Source: Escherichia coli
GTDB taxonomy: Bacteria > Pseudomonadota > Gammaproteobacteria > Enterobacterales > Enterobacteriaceae
DNA length: 64,000 nt
Assembly: GCF_048403405.1 (NCBI RefSeq)
Contig: NZ_CP183129.1
Reading direction: 5' to 3' (one strand)
Shown: positions 27,018-52,865 of the stretch, one piece after another
How positions within the stretch are numbered: the first letter of the stretch is position 1
How the letters are laid out: each line of letters starts with the position of its first letter
Translations under genes and position numbers: made by a program
Notes under the pieces: model-generated
Databases searched by the model: none
Told to the model about the DNA's origin: nothing
What the model saw: only the letters and a program-made list of their open reading frames with translations

Positions 27018-27038
27018 GCAGGCGTTGCTTACTTTTGG
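27014..27038 (+). terminator. Hairpin plus T-run at yibT stop
   Basis: Stem GTAAGCA/TGCTTAC, loop GGCGT, then TTTTGG; overlaps the convergent mtlR stop. Confidence 0.45.
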
Positions 27039-27616
27039 AAGGCTTTTTTTAAGCTGATTTTGGAAATCAGCTCTGTCAGTGAAAGGACCATTGTTGATCG
27101 CACAGCCTGTTGGTAACGCTGAATTTGCATTGCATACAAACTGGAGTCTGCAGGTTCAAACTGTGGCGGCGGTGGTAACGCCGCCACGCAATGCAGTTCA
27201 CCAAAGGGTCCAAGGATTTCGTCGTCGGTAAACGCGTACTCGTTGCCGTCGTGATTTAGCTCTTCACGCAATGCCATCAGCAGTTCCGCATCTTCGTATT
27301 CCTGGCGGTTAATGACACCCAACCCGTAAATGAGTTTTAAACGCACAGAAAGATCGCCCAGCGGACCGTCGCCGTCGAGTAACGGTTCTACAGCATACTT
27401 CACCGCGTAATCGTCTTTGCGGAATACCTGAAGCACCAGAAGATTTACCGCCTCGGTCAAAAGCTCGACGGCGGTGATCAGAAAGCTTCGCACGGTTTTG
27501 CCAGCATTCAGACGCTCAAGCACACGGTTTTCAAAGGCCTGGGTTTGTTCCATTGTTGCCTGCATATCTGACAATCTGTTATTCGGGCGCAGGGTATCCT
27601 GCGCCTGGTCCACCAT
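27029..27616 (-). CDS. mtlR: Mannitol operon repressor
   Basis: 195 aa; last gene of mtlADR. Confidence 0.9.
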   Translation of the reverse strand: MVDQAQDTLRPNNRLSDMQATMEQTQAFENRVLERLNAGKTVRSFLITAVELLTEAVNLLVLQVFRKDDYAVKYAVEPLLDGDGPLGDLSVRLKLIYGLGVINRQEYEDAELLMALREELNHDGNEYAFTDDEILGPFGELHCVAALPPPPQFEPADSSLYAMQIQRYQQAVRSTMVLSLTELISKISLKKAFQK

Positions 27617-28764
27617 TATTGCATTGCTTTATAAGCGGTTACTGCCTCGGATACAACCTCGCTGTTGGCATCAAGACCGGAAATCTGTGCCAGCGCGGCT
27701 TGTGGGCCTTTGTCGGCAATCAGCGCTGCCAGTTCCTGAGCCTGCGGATCATCTTCACTGCGGAAGTGCATTGCAGCGGCAATACCTTCAATCAGGTTTT
27801 TATGTGGCAGACCATATTCCAGCGTTCCGAGCAGTGGCTTGATCAGACGGTCGCCAGCACTCAGTTTACGCAGCGGCTGACGGCCTACGCGCTCTACATC
27901 ATCTTTCAGATACGGGTTCTCGAAACGACCGAGGATTTTCTGGATGTACGCCGCATGTTTGTCCGCGTCAAAGCCGTAGCGCTTGATCAGTACCGCACCG
28001 CTTTCTTCCATCGCACCTTTTACCACCGCGCGGATTTTCTCGTCGAGAATCGCATCACGAATGGTCTGATGACCGGCCAGTTTTCCGAGGTACGCGGTTA
28101 TAGCATGACCCGTGTTCAGGGTGAAGAGTTTACGTTCGACAAATGCCATTAGGTTGTCGGTTAACTCCATGCCTGGGATGTTCGGCAGCGCGCCTTTGAA
28201 CTGCGTTTTATCAACAATCCATTCGCTGAATGTTTCTACCGTCACTTCCAGCGGATCGTTGGTTGCAGAAGCCGAAGGCGGCACGATGCGGTCAACGGCG
28301 GAATCGACAAAGCCAACGTGTTCTTCTACCCACGCTTTGGCATCTTCCGGCAGGGCGTTCATCACATGGCCTTTCAGCTGCGTGGTGCCGCGTACCATGT
28401 TTTCACAAGCGATGATGTTCAGCGGGGATTCATTACCTTGTTCTTTACGTTTCACCAGCCCTTTGGCGATAGCCGGAGCAATACGTTCCAGCACAACCGG
28501 GCCAACGGCGGTAGTGACTAAATCGACCTGAGCAATCAGATCAACGACATCATCACCAATGCTGCTGACAGCATTGACGCCGGAAACGGTATCTACCTGC
28601 TCGGTTTCACCGACCACATGAACCTGATAGCTATGACGGGCATTCAGGGCATCAAGTACCACCTGATTGACATCGGCAAACGTCAGTTGGATACCCGCGT
28701 CTGCCAGCAGTTTACCGATAAAGCCACGACCGATATTACCTGCGCCAAAATGTAATGCTTTCAT
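27616..28764 (-). CDS. mtlD: Mannitol-1-phosphate 5-dehydrogenase
   Basis: Start trimmed to [17 protein letters not shown] (382 aa); the 443-aa ORF-track entry reads through the intergenic hairpins. Confidence 0.95.
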
Positions 28765-28803
28765 AGTATTAACCTTCATCAATGTTTTTACCCGAGAGGG
28801 CTG

Positions 28804-28848
28804 GGGTGAGGCTTTTCCCTCACCCAAACCCTCTCCGTGAGGAGAGGG
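28804..28848. repeat. Two intercistronic stem-loops between mtlA and mtlD
   Basis: GGGTGAGG-CTTTTC-CCTCACCC at 28804-28825 and CCCTCTCC-GTGA-GGAGAGGG at 28829-28848; 8-bp perfect stems. Confidence 0.8.
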
Positions 28849-28858
28849 TAGGATTGGA

Positions 28859-30772
28859 TTACTTACGACCTGCCAGCAGTTCCAGCACTTCATCCACGCT
28901 GGTGGTGTGTGCCAGACGTTCGATGACGGATTCATCATCCAGTGCATTGGTCAGGCTGGTGATAACCTGAATGTGCTCGTTGTTACGGGCAGCAATACCA
29001 ATCACCAGACGGGCAATGTCATCTTCTTCTTCACCGAAGCGCACGCCTTCCGGGTACTGGCAGAACACCACGCCCGTTTTGAGTACGCGATCTTTCGCTT
29101 CAACCGTACCGTGTGGCACCGCGATAGACTCCCCCAGATAAGTCGGGGTCAGTTTTTCACGATCCAGCATCGCCTGAACATATTCCGGCTCAACGTAACC
29201 GCCTTTCACCAGCTGCTCGCCAGCAAAACGAATCGCTTCTTCTTTGGTGGCCGCTTTGCGACCGAGGAAGATGTTCTCCGCGCCTAGCTTGAACAGGTTA
29301 GCACTGGAATCGTCAAAGCTGTCTTTCAGACTGTCTTTCACTTTCACTTCGTTTTCAGTATGGCGCTGAGCAGCAACCAGACGTTCGGTCAGGCTGGTGT
29401 ACAGGCCGCTGTCGAGGAAGTTGGTCAGCGAAATATGCTGTGCCTGCGGAACCTGGCGCATAGCGCGTTCGGTCAGGTCACGGTGAGTGATGACCAGGTC
29501 CACATCTGGCGGCAGGTTGTTGATCGCGCTGTTAGTAACAGAAATCTGCGACAGACCTGCATCCTGAATTTTCTTACGCAGCACGCCTGCGCCCATTGCA
29601 CTGGAACCCATACCGGCATCACAGGCAACGATGATTTTACGTACGTGGCTCAGGTCGTTAGTCACATCGCCCGCAGACAGCGGAGACGCACCTTTAGACT
29701 CAGCTTTCATGTCCTGCATACGACGAGTTGCTGCTTCAATATCATCTTCTTCTTTCACTTTGCTGGTTTTCAGCAAAATAGCAGAGACAACGAAGGAGAC
29801 AGCCATCGCCGCACACACACCCGCGATGTTAGCGAAATAAGCACCTTTTGGTGTCATCGCCAGTACCGCAAGGATAGAACCCGGAGATGCCGGAGAAACC
29901 AGACCACCGCCCAGGATAGTCAGCGTGAACACGCCAGTCATACCACCGAGGATAACGGCCAGAATCAGACGCGGATTCATCAGCACATACGGGAAGTAGA
30001 TTTCGTGGATACCGCCCAGGAAGTGGATGATTGCCGCACCGCCCGCAGACTGTTTAGCGCTACCACGACCAAAGAACATGTACGCCAGCAGCACGCCCAT
30101 ACCCGGACCTGGGTTAGCTTCAATCAGGAAGAAGATGGATTTACCCAGTTCATGGGACTGCTGAATACCCAGCGGCGAGAAGATACCGTGGTTAATGGCG
30201 TTGTTGAGGAACAGGATTTTCGCCGGTTCAACAAAGATAGACGCCAGCGGCAGCATGTCATGGACAACCATGAAGTTAACGCCCGCAGCCAGCATTTTGG
30301 ACAGGGCTTCAACAATCGGGCCAATGCCGAGGAATGCCAGAATAGCGAGGATCATCCCGATGATGCCTGCGGAGAAGTTATTCACCAGCATCTCAAAACC
30401 GGATTTGATCTTACCGTCTACCCAGCGGTCGAAGTGCTTAATGCACCAGCCGCCCAGCGGACCTGCAATCATAGAGCCGAGGAACATCGGCATGTCTGCG
30501 CCGACGATAACGCCCATGGTGGTAATGGCACCGACTACGCCGCCACGTTCGCCGCCTACCAGCTTACCACCGGTATAACCGATCAGCAGCGGCAGGAGAT
30601 AAGTGATCATCGGCCCGACCAGCTTCGCCAGCGTTTCGTTCGGTAACCACCCTGTTGGAATAAATAACGCGGTGATGATACCCCACGCGATAAACGCGCC
30701 GATATTTGGCATCACCATGTTGCTGAGGAAACGACCAAAGCTTTGCACTTTGATCTTAATATCGGATGACAT
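28859..30772 (-). CDS. mtlA: PTS mannitol-specific EIICBA
   Basis: 637 aa; polytopic IIC domain followed by IIB and IIA domains. Confidence 0.95.
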
Positions 30773-30915
30773 AAAAACACCCCTTCTTATGTTTGCTGTC
30801 GCGCAGGCTGGAAGCCCGAGGTTTTTTGTTAATGTGGCGGCAGAGGTAGCCGGACCTTGTAGATACTGCGAAATCTGGCACTGAATCGGTTAACTGTCCA
30901 GTCGACGGCCTTTTG

Positions 30916-30931
30916 TGTGATATCAGTCACA
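30916..30931. promoter_or_regulatory. CRP site, perfect half-sites
   Basis: TGTGA-TATCAG-TCACA, 144 bp upstream of the mtlA start. Confidence 0.75.
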
Positions 30932-30959
30932 TAAATATAGGGGGTAGAGAGGTAATTGA

Positions 30960-30975
30960 CGTGATGCTCATCACA
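30960..30975. promoter_or_regulatory. CRP-like site, one mismatch
   Basis: cGTGA-TGCTCA-TCACA. Confidence 0.5.
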
Positions 30976-31032
30976 AAACTCTTGTGTAAAAAAGCAACAA
31001 GGCGGCGATTTTCGCTAAAAATGGCATTTAAA

Positions 31033-31048
31033 TGTGAGTGATGTCACA
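31033..31048. promoter_or_regulatory. CRP site, perfect half-sites
   Basis: TGTGA-GTGATG-TCACA. Confidence 0.75.
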
Positions 31049-31076
31049 TTTTTGTTTTGATGGTTTGTTGAATTTT

Positions 31077-31092
31077 TGTGATCTGAATCACA
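31077..31092. promoter_or_regulatory. CRP site, perfect half-sites
   Basis: TGTGA-TCTGAA-TCACA. Confidence 0.75.
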
Positions 31093-31308
31093 AGATATTT
31101 TCTTACGGCGTTCACCTGATGTGATCTACAGCATGTTATGCCTTCGTCATGAAATCGTTATGTAACTAAGCAACTCATCACCTCTTAAAATTATTCTTTG
31201 GTGTTATGGCGAGAATCGCGAACCCGGATTATTGTCAAAATATCAGCCTGACTCCCTTCTGGCTGCCAGCCAAAAAACAACACCGATAAACGTGAATCCG
31301 AGGCAGAT

Positions 31309-31671
31309 ATGTTTCTAAACTATTTCGCGTTGGGAGTGCTGATCTTCGTCTTTCTGGTGATTTTTTATGGAATCATCGCGATACATGACATCCCTTATCT
31401 GATTGCCAAAAAGCGCAACCATCCCCATGCCGACGCTATTCATACGGCGGGCTGGGTGAGCCTGTTTACTCTACATGTTATCTGGCCGTTCCTGTGGATC
31501 TGGGCGACGCTCTATCAACCGGAGCGCGGCTGGGGCATGCAGTCACATGTTGCGTCGCAAGAGAAAGCGACTGACCCGGAAATCGCCGCACTTTCTGACC
31601 GAATTTCCCGGCTGGAGCATCAACTCGCCGCCGAGAAAAAGACTGACTATTCCACGTTCCCGGAGATCTAA
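31309..31671 (+). CDS. yibI: Small inner-membrane protein (DUF3302-like)
   Basis: 120 aa, two TM helices; paralogue of the yiaW product in this window. Confidence 0.85.
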
Positions 31672-31673
31672 AT

Positions 31674-32810
31674 ATGGATCTATTGATTGTTTTAACTTAC
31701 GTGGCGCTGGCGTGGGCGGTCTTTAAAATCTTCCGCATTCCGGTGAATCAGTGGACGCTGGCGACGGCGGCGCTGGGAGGCGTGTTTCTGGTGAGTGGTT
31801 TGATTTTGTTGATGAACTACAACCACCCTTACACTTTTACCGCGCAAAAGGCAGTGATAGCGATCCCCATCACGCCACAGGTGACGGGAATTGTTACTGA
31901 AGTCACTGACAAGAATAATCAGCTTATTCAAAAGGGCGAGGTGCTTTTTAAACTCGACCCGGTTCGTTACCAGGCGCGAGTTGACAGACTTCAGGCTGAC
32001 CTGATGACGGCGACGCATAATATAAAGACGCTGCGCGCGCAGCTCTCTGAAGCGCAGGCCAACACCACCCAGGTTTCAGCGGAGCGCGACCGTCTGTTTA
32101 AAAATTATCAACGTTATCTGAAAGGCAGCCAGGCGGCGGTGAATCCGTTCTCGGAACGTGACATCGACGATGCGCGGCAAAACTTCCTCGCGCAGGACGC
32201 GCTGGTGAAAGGCTCGGTGGCGGAGCAGGCGCAGATCCAGAGCCAGCTCGACAGTATGGTTAACGGCGAGCAATCGCAGATTGTGAGCTTAAGAGCGCAA
32301 CTTACTGAAGCAAAATATAACCTTGAGCAGACTGTCATTCGCGCGCCGAGCAATGGCTACGTTACTCAGGTACTGATCCGCCCAGGTACATACGCAGCTG
32401 CCTTGCCGTTGCGTCCGGTGATGGTTTTCATCCCCGAGCAAAAACGGCAAATTGTCGCCCAATTTCGGCAAAACTCGCTGTTACGTCTGAAACCCGGCGA
32501 TGATGCGGAAGTGGTGTTTAACGCGCTACCTGGGCAGGTGTTCCACGGCAAACTGACTAGCATTTTACCTGTCGTGCCAGGCGGTTCTTATCAGGCGCAG
32601 GGGGTATTGCAATCATTAACGGTCGTGCCCGGCACGGACGGTGTGCTGGGAACCATTGAACTGGACCCTAACGATGATATCGATGCCTTACCCGACGGCA
32701 TCTACGCCCAGGTGGCGGTTTACTCCGACCATTTCAGCCATGTTTCGGTGATGCGGAAAGTGCTGCTAAGAATGACCAGCTGGATGCATTATCTTTATTT
32801 GGATCATTGA
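31674..32810 (+). CDS. yibH: HlyD-family membrane-fusion-like protein
   Basis: 378 aa; N-terminal TM helix, coiled coil, beta-barrel region; 3 bp after yibI; paralogue of yiaV. Confidence 0.85.
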
Positions 32811-33267: not shown

Positions 33268-33789
33268 TTATTCATCGATGCATTTTATAGAATCATCAAT
33301 GGCTACAATAGTACTATTAACTCTCCAATTTATATTTTTATTATCATTGCAAATATTAACTGAATCTATATCAATGATTTTTTTATTTTTATCTTTTATT
33401 TTGTTTACAGTTTCAATGCAATCAGCGACAAGTTGGTGTGGATTTAGATTCTTCAGATATGGTCTTATGATCTTTCCCTTGCTTAATAAATAGCATGTAT
33501 AGGATTCGGAAAGTCCAGCATCTATTTTGTACATCATTATTCTAGATAAGGATGTGAGAAATGCCTTGTTATCATTAGCAGCCATATATGCCAGTCCGAG
33601 TTCAGCCTCTGCGGCTTTACATGAAAAATAGCTAAGTGAACACGCTTTTCGTCCCTCTTGGGTACTGGCTGATATTAGTGCCCATAATATTGCCTTGTCT
33701 GCCAAATCCAACTCTCTCTGAAATTGGTTTACAGTAACTGCATTCGCAGAAATAGAGAAGAAAAGCACAATTGTTAATAACCTTGTCAT
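33268..33789 (-). CDS. Exported Cys-containing protein of unknown function (candidate orphan immunity protein)
   Basis: 173 aa; signal peptide with likely cleavage after ANA; 7 Cys; very AT-rich gene between the Rhs module and yibH. Confidence 0.5.
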   Translation of the reverse strand: MTRLLTIVLFFSISANAVTVNQFQRELDLADKAILWALISASTQEGRKACSLSYFSCKAAEAELGLAYMAANDNKAFLTSLSRIMMYKIDAGLSESYTCYLLSKGKIIRPYLKNLNPHQLVADCIETVNKIKDKNKKIIDIDSVNICNDNKNINWRVNSTIVAIDDSIKCIDE

Positions 33790-34157
33790 ATTTCTAGTCC
33801 GTCACTGTTAATGTGCTATCTGGCTCTGAAAATATTAGCTCATTTAATTTTTGCATGTCATTAGATGAACCAGTTATACAACCCTCGGAACAGAATCGAG
33901 GTCCTAAAGATGGACCAAAAGCGTTTAAACAACTATGTGTTAAAAATCCATCACGATTATACGTTTCTGTATTTGCTGACGGTACTAAACGTATACCATT
34001 AGGTTTTCTATTGGTTGCTCCAGGACTGTTAAGCAAGCCTCGTCCGGTTTGCTTCATTGAGTTCTCCACTTTAGACTATTGGACTATCTTTCAACATGGC
34101 ATCGCCTTAGTATACCGCTGGTTTTCCGCTCATTGTTAATTTTCTCTTTCGTTCATT

Positions 34158-34568
34158 TCACTTAATTTTCAGTTTTTTCCAAAAGTCAATATTCCCTTCT
34201 AATAAAATTTTTTCTATGGAATCTTCATTAATTTTATTATTAGAGCATATGACATTATCTTGAACGCCATATGACACCACCCCGTTTTTATCAATATAAT
34301 ATCTGTCTTTACCATCAATAATATAAATCCTAACATTTTTATCATCAAAATGGTAACACTCATTACTAGACCTGTTCAGTAACATTAATAACTTCTCACG
34401 ATTTATCTGTAATAATTTTTGTGCACCATCTTTTATTGCAAAATTTTCAATTTTACTTTTAGTGACAGGGGAATATGTTTGGATGCGAAAAGGCATCCTA
34501 TAATGGAAAACATCAGCTATACAGCAAGATGAAAAAAATACGGAAATAAAATACAGACATACTTTCAT
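34158..34568 (-). CDS. Putative exported immunity protein cognate to the Rhs C-terminal toxin
   Basis: 136 aa; hydrophobic N-terminus MKVCLYFISVFFSSCC; starts 57 bp after the rhs stop, same strand, with GGAG RBS; AT-rich like the rhs tip. Confidence 0.55.
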   Translation of the reverse strand: MKVCLYFISVFFSSCCIADVFHYRMPFRIQTYSPVTKSKIENFAIKDGAQKLLQINREKLLMLLNRSSNECYHFDDKNVRIYIIDGKDRYYIDKNGVVSYGVQDNVICSNNKINEDSIEKILLEGNIDFWKKLKIK

Positions 34569-46034: not shown

Positions 46035-46102
46035 GCCTGATGCGACGCTTACGCGTTTTATCATGCCTACGGGGACCTGACCGTAGGCCGGATAAGGCGT
46101 AC
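46035..46102. repeat. REP/BIME palindromic units, the second split by IS insertion
   Basis: GCCTGATGCGACGCTTACGCG...ATGCCTAC, then GTAGGCCGGATAAGGCGT whose partner half ACACGCCGCATCCGGC resumes at 47537. Confidence 0.8.
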
Positions 46103-46144
46103 TGAACTGCACCCCAAATGTTGGACATAATCTGACATCTGAAG

Positions 46145-46675
46145 GTGCAGTTTATGAAACATTCATTTGAAGTAAAAATTGCCGCTGTAAATCATTACCT
46201 GGCCGGTCATGCAGGCATCATTTCTACGGCAAAACTCTTTCAACTTTCTCACACCAGCCTCTCACACTGGATTAATCTTTTTCTTCTTCACGGTCCTCGG
46301 GCACTGGATTGCAGACACAGGCGTAGCTATTCTCCTGAAGATAAACTTTGCGTGGTTCTTTATGCTCTCGGGCATTCTGAGTCTCTACCCCGGGTAGCTG
46401 CCCGGTTTAACATTCCCAGCCACAACACGGTTAAAAACTGGATAAAAGGCTACCGCAAATCTGGTAATGAGGCCTTTATCAGGCGCAGGAAGGAGAAAAG
46501 CATGACCCGTTCTGATGATACCCATGAAAACGAAGCAAACATGACGCCGGAAGAGATGAAGAATGAGCTGCGTTATCTTCGCGCAGAAAATGCATATCTG
46601 AAAGCCATGCAGGAGCATCTCCTGGAAAAAAAGCGCCAGGAGCTGGAGAAAAAACGAAAGTCATCCGGAGCCTGA
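46145..46675 (+). CDS. IS transposase OrfA (HTH)
   Basis: 176 aa; helix-turn-helix N-terminus and leucine-zipper-like C-terminus typical of IS3-family OrfA. Confidence 0.85.
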   Translation: MQFMKHSFEVKIAAVNHYLAGHAGIISTAKLFQLSHTSLSHWINLFLLHGPRALDCRHRRSYSPEDKLCVVLYALGHSESLPRVAARFNIPSHNTVKNWIKGYRKSGNEAFIRRRKEKSMTRSDDTHENEANMTPEEMKNELRYLRAENAYLKAMQEHLLEKKRQELEKKRKSSGA

Positions 46676-46779
46676 GGTGCGGACACTGCCAGTCTGACCT
46701 GTTAAAGGCTGCAGGGCTGGCCAGAAGCACGCTGTACTACCAGCTGTCACTGCAGAAGGCTAAGGACAAGTATGCTGAT

Positions 46780-47535
<756 letters not shown>

Positions 47536-47664
47536 ACACGCCGCATCCGGCATAAACAAAGCGCACGTTGTTACAATTTACGTTTTAAACCTACGTGCGC
47601 AATAACCCAATAACCCAGACTACGCCAACAGAAGTGCGTTTCTGGGGCGTGTTTTGCCAGGAGT

Positions 47665-48319: not shown

Positions 48320-49456
48320 ATGGATTTACTGATTATTTTAACCTATGTGGCTTTCGCATGGGCAATGTTTAAGATCTTCAAAATTCCTGTAAATAAATGG
48401 ACCATTCCCACAGCGGCCCTGGGTGGCATATTTATTGTCAGCGGTTTAATTCTGTTAATGAACTATAACCATCCGTATACCTTTAAAGCGCAAAAAGCGG
48501 TTATTTCTATTCCTGTTGTCCCACAGGTGACAGGCGTGGTGATCGAAGTGACGGACAAGAAAAATACGCTGATTAAAAAAGGTGAGGTGCTATTTCGACT
48601 GGACCCGACGCGTTATCAGGCGCGGGTGGATCGGCTGATGGCGGATATCGTTACCGCAGAACATAAACAGCGGGCGTTGGGCGCAGAGTTAGATGAGATG
48701 GCGGCGAATACTCAGCAGGCAAAGGCCACGCGGGATAAATTCGCTAAAGAGTATCAGCGTTACGCACGCGGCAGTCAGGCGAAAGTAAACCCGTTTTCAG
48801 AACGTGATATCGATGTGGCGCGGCAAAATTATCTGGCACAGGAAGCCTCCGTAAAATCAGCGGCGGCGGAACAAAAACAGATCCTGAGCCAGCTGGATAG
48901 CCTGGTGTTGGGTGAACATTCTCAAATCGCCAGCCTGAAAGCACAGCTCGCGGAAGCAAAATATAACCTTGAGCAGACGATAGTGCGTGCGCCGAGCGAT
49001 GGTTATGTGACCCAGGTACTGATTCGTCCGGGTACCTATGCCGCGTCGCTGCCGCTACGTCCGGTGATGGTGTTTATACCCGATCAGAAACGACAAATCG
49101 TGGCGCAGTTCCGTCAGAACTCCTTGCTGCGACTGGCTCCTGGCGACGATGCGGAAGTGGTGTTTAATGCTCTGCCAGGTAAGGTATTCAGCGGTAAGCT
49201 GGCAGCCATTAGTCCAGCCGTTCCCGGCGGAGCTTATCAGTCGACCGGCACCTTACAGACGTTAAACACAGCGCCGGGTTCAGATGGCGTTATCGCGACC
49301 ATTGAACTGGATGAGCATACTGATTTGAGCGCATTACCAGACGGTATTTACGCCCAGGTGGCGGTCTACTCTGATCATTTCAGCCATGTCTCGGTGATGC
49401 GCAAAGTACTGTTACGCATGACCAGCTGGGTGCATTACCTTTATCTCGATCATTAA
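48320..49456 (+). CDS. yiaV: HlyD-family membrane-fusion-like protein
   Basis: 378 aa; collinear paralogue of yibH with identical N- and C-terminal stretches. Confidence 0.85.
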
Positions 49457-51339: not shown

Positions 51340-52116
<777 letters not shown>

Positions 52117-52220
52117 ATCAGCATACTTGTCCTTAGCCTTCTGCAGTGACAGCTGGTAGTACAGCGTGCTTCTGGCCAGCCCTGCAGCCTTTAACAGGTC
52201 AGACTGGCAGTGTCCGCACC

Positions 52221-52751
52221 TCAGGCTCCGGATGACTTTCGTTTTTTCTCCAGCTCCTGGCGCTTTTTTTCCAGGAGATGCTCCTGCATGGCTTTCAGAT
52301 ATGCATTTTCTGCGCGAAGATAACGCAGCTCATTCTTCATCTCTTCCGGCGTCATGTTTGCTTCGTTTTCATGGGTATCATCAGAACGGGTCATGCTTTT
52401 CTCCTTCCTGCGCCTGATAAAGGCCTCATTACCAGATTTGCGGTAGCCTTTTATCCAGTTTTTAACCGTGTTGTGGCTGGGAATGTTAAACCGGGCAGCT
52501 ACCCGGGGTAGAGACTCAGAATGCCCGAGAGCATAAAGAACCACGCAAAGTTTATCTTCAGGAGAATAGCTACGCCTGTGTCTGCAATCCAGTGCCCGAG
52601 GACCGTGAAGAAGAAAAAGATTAATCCAGTGTGAGAGGCTGGTGTGAGAAAGTTGAAAGAGTTTTGCCGTAGAAATGATGCCTGCATGACCGGCCAGGTA
52701 ATGATTTACAGCGGCAATTTTTACTTCAAATGAATGTTTCATAAACTGCAC
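52221..52751 (-). CDS. IS transposase OrfA, copy B
   Basis: Identical 176-aa product to copy A. Confidence 0.85.
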   Translation of the reverse strand: MQFMKHSFEVKIAAVNHYLAGHAGIISTAKLFQLSHTSLSHWINLFLLHGPRALDCRHRRSYSPEDKLCVVLYALGHSESLPRVAARFNIPSHNTVKNWIKGYRKSGNEAFIRRRKEKSMTRSDDTHENEANMTPEEMKNELRYLRAENAYLKAMQEHLLEKKRQELEKKRKSSGA

Positions 52752-52793
52752 CTTCAGATGTCAGATTATGTCCAACATTTGGGGTGCAGTTCA

Positions 52794-52865
52794 GTTAAGC
52801 GTCGCATCAGGCAATGTGCACCCTACGGTGGATGCGGCGCGAGTGCCTTATCCAACCTACGGATG
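52794..52865. repeat. REP/BIME palindromic units flanking IS copy B
   Basis: AGCGTCGCATCAGGC ... GGATGCGGCGCGAGTGCCTTATCCAACCTACGG; overlaps the 3' end of the glycoside hydrolase gene. Confidence 0.7.

Follow-up and report, generated by a model that had tools for sequence, protein, structure and literature searches.

The CRP-site cluster between mtlA and yibI of Escherichia coli is almost certainly the five-site operator of the mannitol operon

Few CRP targets of Escherichia coli are documented as well as the operator of the mannitol operon (mtlADR): its sites were mapped in 1995, they are curated in RegulonDB and the logic of their spacing was explained in 2026. The five CRP sites are credited to Ramseier & Saier (1995) in a paper that cites that work. 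Lee et al. (NAR, 2026; PMC13421365) place them at −58.5, −102.5, −175.5, −219.5 and −262.5 of the mtl promoter, with spacings of 44, 73, 44 and 43 bp, and report that CRP2 and CRP3 match at 10/10 conserved bases and CRP1 at 7/10. RegulonDB entries for all five sites, at the same positions, appear in Table S4 of Shimada (2011), a study in which the yibI/mtlA spacer was the second most abundant clone recovered by genomic SELEX with CRP. Two CRP peaks, 136 bp apart, have been observed in the region in vivo by ChIP-seq in ETEC (Haycocks, 2015), and mtlA, mtlD and mtlR all belong to the Crp-1 and Crp-2 i-modulons extracted from 278 RNA-seq conditions.

Transcription of mtl requires CRP; chromosomal mutation of CRP2, CRP4 or CRP5 abolishes mtl expression and growth on mannitol, mutation of CRP3 has only minor consequences, and CRP1, a poorly occupied site, is not needed (PMC13421365). 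MtlR, which has no DNA-binding domain, represses through two CRP dimers bound at sites 43–46 bp apart. In EMSA, the MtlR–CRP–DNA supershift is seen only at this spacing, and the 73 bp pair does not recruit MtlR (PMC13421365). In the resulting model, high cAMP would place CRP dimers on CRP5, CRP4, CRP3 and CRP2, as needed for transcription of mtlADR. The number of sites and their fixed 43–44 bp spacing would have a second role as a docking platform for MtlR, which would bring about repression by docking on the dimer pairs at CRP4/5, CRP2/3 or CRP1/2 (43–46 bp). This combination of an activation scaffold and a protein-anchoring platform is the published rationale for the unusual number and quality of the sites. 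A 1 bp insertion in the mtlA/yibI intergenic region is listed, for a 1,200-day stationary-phase evolution experiment with E. coli, among the mutations that became fixed; a 1 bp indel between CRP sites could be functionally significant, since MtlR recruitment needs a spacing of 43–46 bp.

The closest architectural parallel is the malE–malK divergent intergenic region, which likewise carries a multi-CRP array serving as an architectural and activating scaffold, there in a nucleoprotein complex with MalT. At malE–malK, control has been demonstrated for both divergent operons, at mtlA/yibI for the mtlA side only. The mal CRP2–CRP3 spacing is 34 bp and does not recruit MtlR, but lengthening it to 44 bp leads to MtlR binding (PMC13421365). 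The class I and class II promoters, such as lac (−61.5) and galP1 (−41.5), have the activator, the 16 bp core motif and cAMP dependence in common with mtl. The mtl system is more complex than these single-site promoters, with a proximal site at −58.5 and three more needed sites up to −219.5. The position of CRP5 at −58.5 fits neither class I (−61.5) nor class II (−41.5), and the activation geometry is not the textbook one.

The window, by which we mean the whole 64 kb stretch of E. coli DNA analysed here, contains the following genes around the intergenic region.

~27029-27616, minus strand: mtlR, downstream of mtlA
~27616-28764, minus strand: mtlD, downstream of mtlA
28859-30772, minus strand: mtlA, mannitol PTS enzyme IICBA, first gene of mtlADR (ORF and RefSeq annotation of a 100% identical genome)
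30773-31308: mtlA/yibI intergenic region, 536 bp, E. coli
30865..30901, minus strand: mtlADR core promoter; −35 TGGACA at 30901..30896, −10 CAGATT at 30877..30872, start ~30865 (±1)
31309-31671, plus strand: yibI, DUF3302, divergent from mtlA (ORF and RefSeq annotation)
31674-32810, plus strand: yibH, HlyD-family membrane-fusion protein, after yibI (ORF and RefSeq annotation)

The intergenic region is 100% identical to that of E. coli O139:H1 chromosomes, and it was found as the upstream region of mtlA in 5404 of 5426 complete E. coli genomes. The RefSeq annotation of an identical genome places mtlR–mtlD–mtlA on one side and yibI and yibH on the other, and the flanking genes are as given in a preliminary description of the region. 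The mtl start was placed in the window sequence by counting back from the sites, whose published positions refer to a start mapped with S1; the position so obtained is a T on the coding strand and may be about 1 bp off. The mtl −10 and −35 blocks are invariant in an alignment of 12 genera and species. A generic σ70 scan returned no convincing promoter on either side, and it missed the known mtl promoter as well. An Rfam scan of 30400–31800 gave no match, and hence no known sRNA or leader. A 42-residue ORF at 30913–31041, which lies over the CRP sites, was rejected as spurious because it spans conserved operator sites and its codons are CRP half-sites.

Two further features were noted on either side of these genes. 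The 98 nt mtlA–mtlD spacer (28765–28862, minus strand) contains three GC-rich hairpins (−40.4 kcal/mol; z = −4.4 against shuffles) that look like REP-type or intra-operon stabiliser/attenuator elements. Just downstream of yibH, from 33268 to 34568 and beyond (minus strand), lie AT-rich genes whose annotated products are an immunity protein of the Imm57 family, a hypothetical protein and an RHS core protein. Given these Rhs genes, and given that a GST (yibF-like) gene or selA neighbours mtlA where yibIH is absent, yibIH may lie at the edge of a variable Rhs-associated region.

Five CRP sites were located in the intergenic region. They were scored with a position weight matrix (PWM) derived from 103 CRP sites in an independent ETEC ChIP-seq table, from which the mtl/yibI entries had been left out.

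30916..30931: CRP5, TGTGATATCAGTCACA; perfect core; centre 30923.5, −58.5 of the mtl promoter; 17.3 bits; position and spacing of the published CRP5
30960..30975: CRP4, CGTGATGCTCATCACA; one core mismatch; centre 30967.5, −102.5; 16.9 bits; 44 bp from CRP5, as published
31033..31048: CRP3, TGTGAGTGATGTCACA; perfect core; centre 31040.5, −175.5; 15.4 bits; 73 bp from CRP4, as published
31077..31092: CRP2, TGTGATCTGAATCACA; perfect core; centre 31084.5, −219.5; 20.0 bits, rank 1 in the window; 44 bp from CRP3
31120..31135: CRP1, TGTGATCTACAGCATG; weak, 7/10 core bases; centre 31127.5, −262.5; 10.3 bits, rank 12; 43 bp from CRP2

The four strong sites, spanning 177 bp (30916–31092), take ranks 1–4 among all PWM matches in the 64 kb window (20.0, 17.3, 16.9 and 15.4 bits), and CRP1 is found in the core scan when three mismatches are permitted. 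The centre spacings from CRP5 to CRP1 (44/73/44/43 bp) and the site positions equal those published for the mtl operator, and the pattern of core matches (10/10 for CRP2 and CRP3, 7/10 for CRP1) also agrees with the published one. The only exact TGTGA-N6-TCACA matches in the window are those at 30916, 31033 and 31077. The preliminary description had listed these three perfect sites and a one-mismatch site at 30960, all within about 180 bp, and had taken them for the multiple CRP sites of the mtl operon. Each of these statements is borne out, both by the scan with a CRP matrix and by the comparison with mapped mtl promoter sites that it had proposed: all five sites coincide with the published CRP5 to CRP1. 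Its list was right for four sites but overlooked the fifth, CRP1 at 31120. It had also called the perfect consensus striking; the three perfect cores are real, but they were already documented and have a published rationale.

Elsewhere in the window, the one-mismatch matches at 46779 and 52102 were considered as further regulation and set aside, as they are the same IS3-family sequence present in two copies and two orientations; the remaining one-mismatch matches form no cluster. The fifth-best PWM match in the window, AGCGATCCCCATCACG at 31859–31874, scores above CRP1 (12.2 bits) and lies inside the yibH coding sequence. This match may be due to chance; about a third of CRP targets found by ChIP-seq are intragenic (Haycocks, 2015).

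The two IS3-family copies are 1,436 bp long (46101–47536 and 51360–52795), inverted and 100% identical, and each contains an HTH transposase ORF and an rve integrase-core ORF. The 3.8 kb that they bracket contains an HlyD-family gene (48320–49456) that is a yibH paralogue, together with genes for a LysR regulator and a MipA-family protein, with an aldehyde dehydrogenase gene on one side and a GH127 gene on the other. An IS3 pair around a yiaV-like paralogue of the yibIH module resembles a composite transposon in its arrangement.

The cluster is almost certainly the operator–promoter of the mannitol operon mtlADR with its five cAMP–CRP sites, and none of the results obtained speaks against this identity. 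Site positions, strength, exact spacing and conservation with mtlA come from the present analysis, while CRP binding, site essentiality and MtlR bridging are taken from the literature. The site cluster, its attribution to mtl and the quality of its sites are already known, and this locus is that very operator of E. coli rather than a further member or variant of its kind. Relative to K-12, the genes, the five sites, the 43/44/73/44 bp spacing, the half-sites and the −10 and −35 elements are identical. The two intergenic regions share ~98% identity and differ only by strain-level SNPs that are concentrated in the central six bases (N6) of the sites: TATCAG in the window against TATCAA in K-12 at CRP5, TGCTCA against CGTTCA at CRP4, and GTGATG against GTAGTG at CRP3. 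As the half-sites and spacing are the same and only N6 bases differ, we infer that the strain represented by the window would behave like K-12.

This concentration of differences in the N6 cores extends to E. coli as a whole. Nine diverse E. coli genomes were aligned first, followed by an alignment of 117 sequences that included 108 metagenome contigs anchored on the mtl −10 and −35 elements. Nucleotide diversity per site was distributed as follows.

CRP half-sites: 0.001-0.002, with hardly any variation among the 117 sequences
Rest of the intergenic region: 0.014-0.019
N6 cores of all five sites: 0.115-0.129
N6 cores of CRP5, CRP4 and CRP3 only (30921-30926, 30965-30970, 31038-31043): 0.17
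Fourfold degenerate sites of mtlA, yibI and yibH, same contigs: 0.045-0.06

With synonymous sites as the reference, polymorphism within E. coli is therefore ~3–4 times higher at the N6 bases of CRP5, CRP4 and CRP3, and diversity in the rest of the intergenic region is ~4-fold lower. Counted by parsimony on a neighbour-joining tree of the flanks, there are 2.3 changes per site at the N6 positions of CRP5/4/3 versus 0.7 at fourfold degenerate sites (Mann–Whitney p about 9e-7). In the nine diverse genomes, columns 30965 and 30966, which are adjacent, carry all four combinations of alleles. Ten N6 variants of CRP4 occur among 73 sequences, in which CRP2 is nearly invariant over all 16 positions, and the joint operator haplotypes number 33. 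From these alignments, most of the intergenic region appears to be under purifying selection, and the central bases of CRP5, CRP4 and CRP3 appear to change faster than synonymous sites. The central bases of CRP sites are described as making no direct contact and contributing by indirect readout (PMC2504297).

Conservation across Gammaproteobacteria was assessed by scanning the 600 bp upstream of each mtlA, with one genome taken per species, in 58 gammaproteobacterial loci. The CRP5–CRP4–CRP3–CRP2 spacing is exactly 44/73/44 in 40 of these, from genera that include Escherichia, Citrobacter, Enterobacter, Klebsiella, Serratia and Yersinia as well as Pantoea, Erwinia, Pectobacterium, Hafnia, Rahnella and Budvicia. 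Near spacings were found in Providencia (44/72/44), Aeromonas (44/73/45), Tolumonas (43/74/45) and Photobacterium (43/73/45), and Budvicia has a near-identical variant besides the exact spacing. The divergent neighbour is yibI–yibH in only 12 of the 58 loci (Escherichia, Citrobacter, Leclercia, some Enterobacter, Pseudescherichia and Pseudocitrobacter). The exact array is present without yibIH in 28 loci, and in many of these the upstream gene points the same way as mtlA and a divergent promoter is lacking. The neighbours of mtlA where yibIH is absent belong to at least 16 unrelated families, among them a co-directional DUF3053 gene (nine genera), a divergent GST gene (yibF-like), flavodoxin-like genes, selA and PTS EIIC. 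Among genera with yibIH, the start codons of mtlA and yibI lie 433, 530–536 or 655–661 bp apart, the differences being due to a ~100 bp deletion or a ~130 bp insertion between CRP1 and yibI. Because of this variable distance, the positions of the sites relative to yibI, and with them the site-to-gene arrangement among genomes with yibIH, are not conserved. When these genera are aligned, the mtl leader, the −10, the −35 and all half-sites align cleanly, whereas conservation collapses past CRP1. The comparison of loci indicates that the array is a feature of mtlA and that its juxtaposition with yibIH is lineage-restricted.

A promoter in the yibI direction does exist. Its candidate elements lie in the DNA between CRP1 and yibI.

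31136..31308, plus strand: yibI-proximal DNA, 173 bp; no CRP-like site; two candidate −10 elements (inferred)
31150-31155, towards yibI: candidate −10, polymorphic; TGAAAT in the window (without the key A2), TACAAT in K-12 and the majority, TAAAAT in UTI89-like strains
31236-31241, towards yibI: candidate TG-extended −10 CAAAAT

SELEX with the RNAP holoenzyme yielded a TCTACA-19-TACAAT element in this spacer in the yibI direction (Shimada, 2014), the −35 of which overlaps CRP1. In UTI89, promoter-trap inserts at this spacer were enriched for urine-induced GFP (5.6-fold). They map to window positions 30979–31460, with CRP3, CRP2 and CRP1, and to 31164–31399, with no CRP site. The insert coordinates of this screen are perhaps read ends rather than insert ends, and the CRP-free insert is not taken as proof of a CRP-independent promoter. 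The nucleotide diversity of the yibI-proximal DNA within E. coli is 0.015, against 0.045–0.06 at fourfold degenerate sites, and deletion of yibI lowers the fitness of UPEC in urine. With a start at ~31162, as predicted from the −10 candidate at 31150–31155, CRP1 would be centred at −34.5, over the −35, and CRP2 at about −77.5. With a start at ~31248, as predicted from CAAAAT at 31236–31241, both sites would be more than 120 bp upstream. Neither candidate start gives a canonical activating CRP geometry.

Two alternatives to an operator serving mtl were weighed. That the sites are CRP-like words clustered by chance in AT-rich intergenic DNA and without function draws on nothing beyond the general fact that short palindromic motifs arise by chance, and its probability is negligible. 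In 100 dinucleotide shuffles, 0.03 perfect matches were expected per 64 kb, against three in 177 bp, and none of the shuffles reached three; within E. coli the bases around the half-sites vary but the half-sites do not; the spacing is kept to the base pair across gammaproteobacterial orders; and the literature holds direct binding and mutational evidence. Chance clustering is already refuted. The other alternative is that CRP1 and CRP2, and possibly CRP3, act in addition on the divergent yibIH promoter and place it under catabolite control and perhaps under MtlR/mannitol control. Here there is more to consider, as yibI is transcribed away from the array and divergent CRP sites often regulate both sides (Shimada, 2011). 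The −10-like hexamer at 31150–31155 would leave CRP2 within reach, and the longer UTI89 insert, with its three CRP sites, drives urine-induced GFP. Conservation across genera extends to the TGTGATC half-site of CRP1, although mtl does not need this site. The separate ETEC ChIP-seq peak over CRP2 and CRP1 carries the label yibI, although solely by the rule that the gene start is no more than 300 bp away (Haycocks, 2015); PhyloScan ranked the region first, likewise by proximity, and in Shimada (2011) the gene opposite mtlA has no more than the status of a 'predicted' CRP target.

The comparative data nevertheless argue against such bidirectional control, since the array stays with mtlA in the 28 loci of exact spacing that have no yibIH, and where yibIH is present the stretch that separates the array from the yibI ATG differs in length by more than 200 bp between genera, the sequence between CRP1 and yibI not being conserved. 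The 173 bp between CRP1 and yibI have no CRP-like site (best PWM score 2.0 bits). The start at ~31162 would put CRP1 on the −35 and CRP2 off the usual −61.5/−72/−82.5 phasing, the start at ~31248 is too distant from both for a canonical arrangement, and the CRP-free insert was recovered in the same urine-induction screen. No report of crp-dependent yibI expression was found in the literature searched. Both yibI and yibH are absent from the listed genes of the Crp-1 and Crp-2 i-modulons (the printed list lacks five Crp-1 genes), and yibI, yibH, b3598 and b3597 are absent from the supplements of Latif (2018), Kim (2012) and Sastry (2019; i-modulon supplements, 610 kb). Lee et al. (2026; PMC13421365) make no mention of yibI. 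On balance we consider bidirectional control unlikely, and we would expect a measurable direct effect of CRP on yibIH with similarly little confidence. The preliminary description had suggested that the sites could put yibI–yibH under catabolite control; this finds no support in the comparisons made here, as the array goes with mtlA and the distance from the sites to yibI is not conserved. That yibI is under CRP is an old, proximity-based conjecture, not an original one, and the comparative data weaken it rather than refute it.

With the mtl operator as the preferred reading, the hypervariability of the N6 cores may be a new observation. A speculative extension, which we hold only tentatively and think more doubtful than probable, is that the N6 cores are true hot spots of change and/or that yibIH is co-regulated by the distal CRP sites together with CRP-anchored MtlR. 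Hot spots may arise if CRP-bound, kinked DNA mutates or escapes repair more often, or recurrent selection may adjust CRP occupancy, and through it MtlR recruitment, in individual strains. Shared mtl control of yibIH would bear on a y-ome operon that affects the fitness of UPEC in urine and, if true, would connect mannitol and cAMP signalling with an uncharacterised envelope module of the DUF3302/HlyD type. N6 hypervariability, if general to CRP sites, would bear on mutation shaped by transcription-factor binding or on the tuning of operator strength in natural populations.
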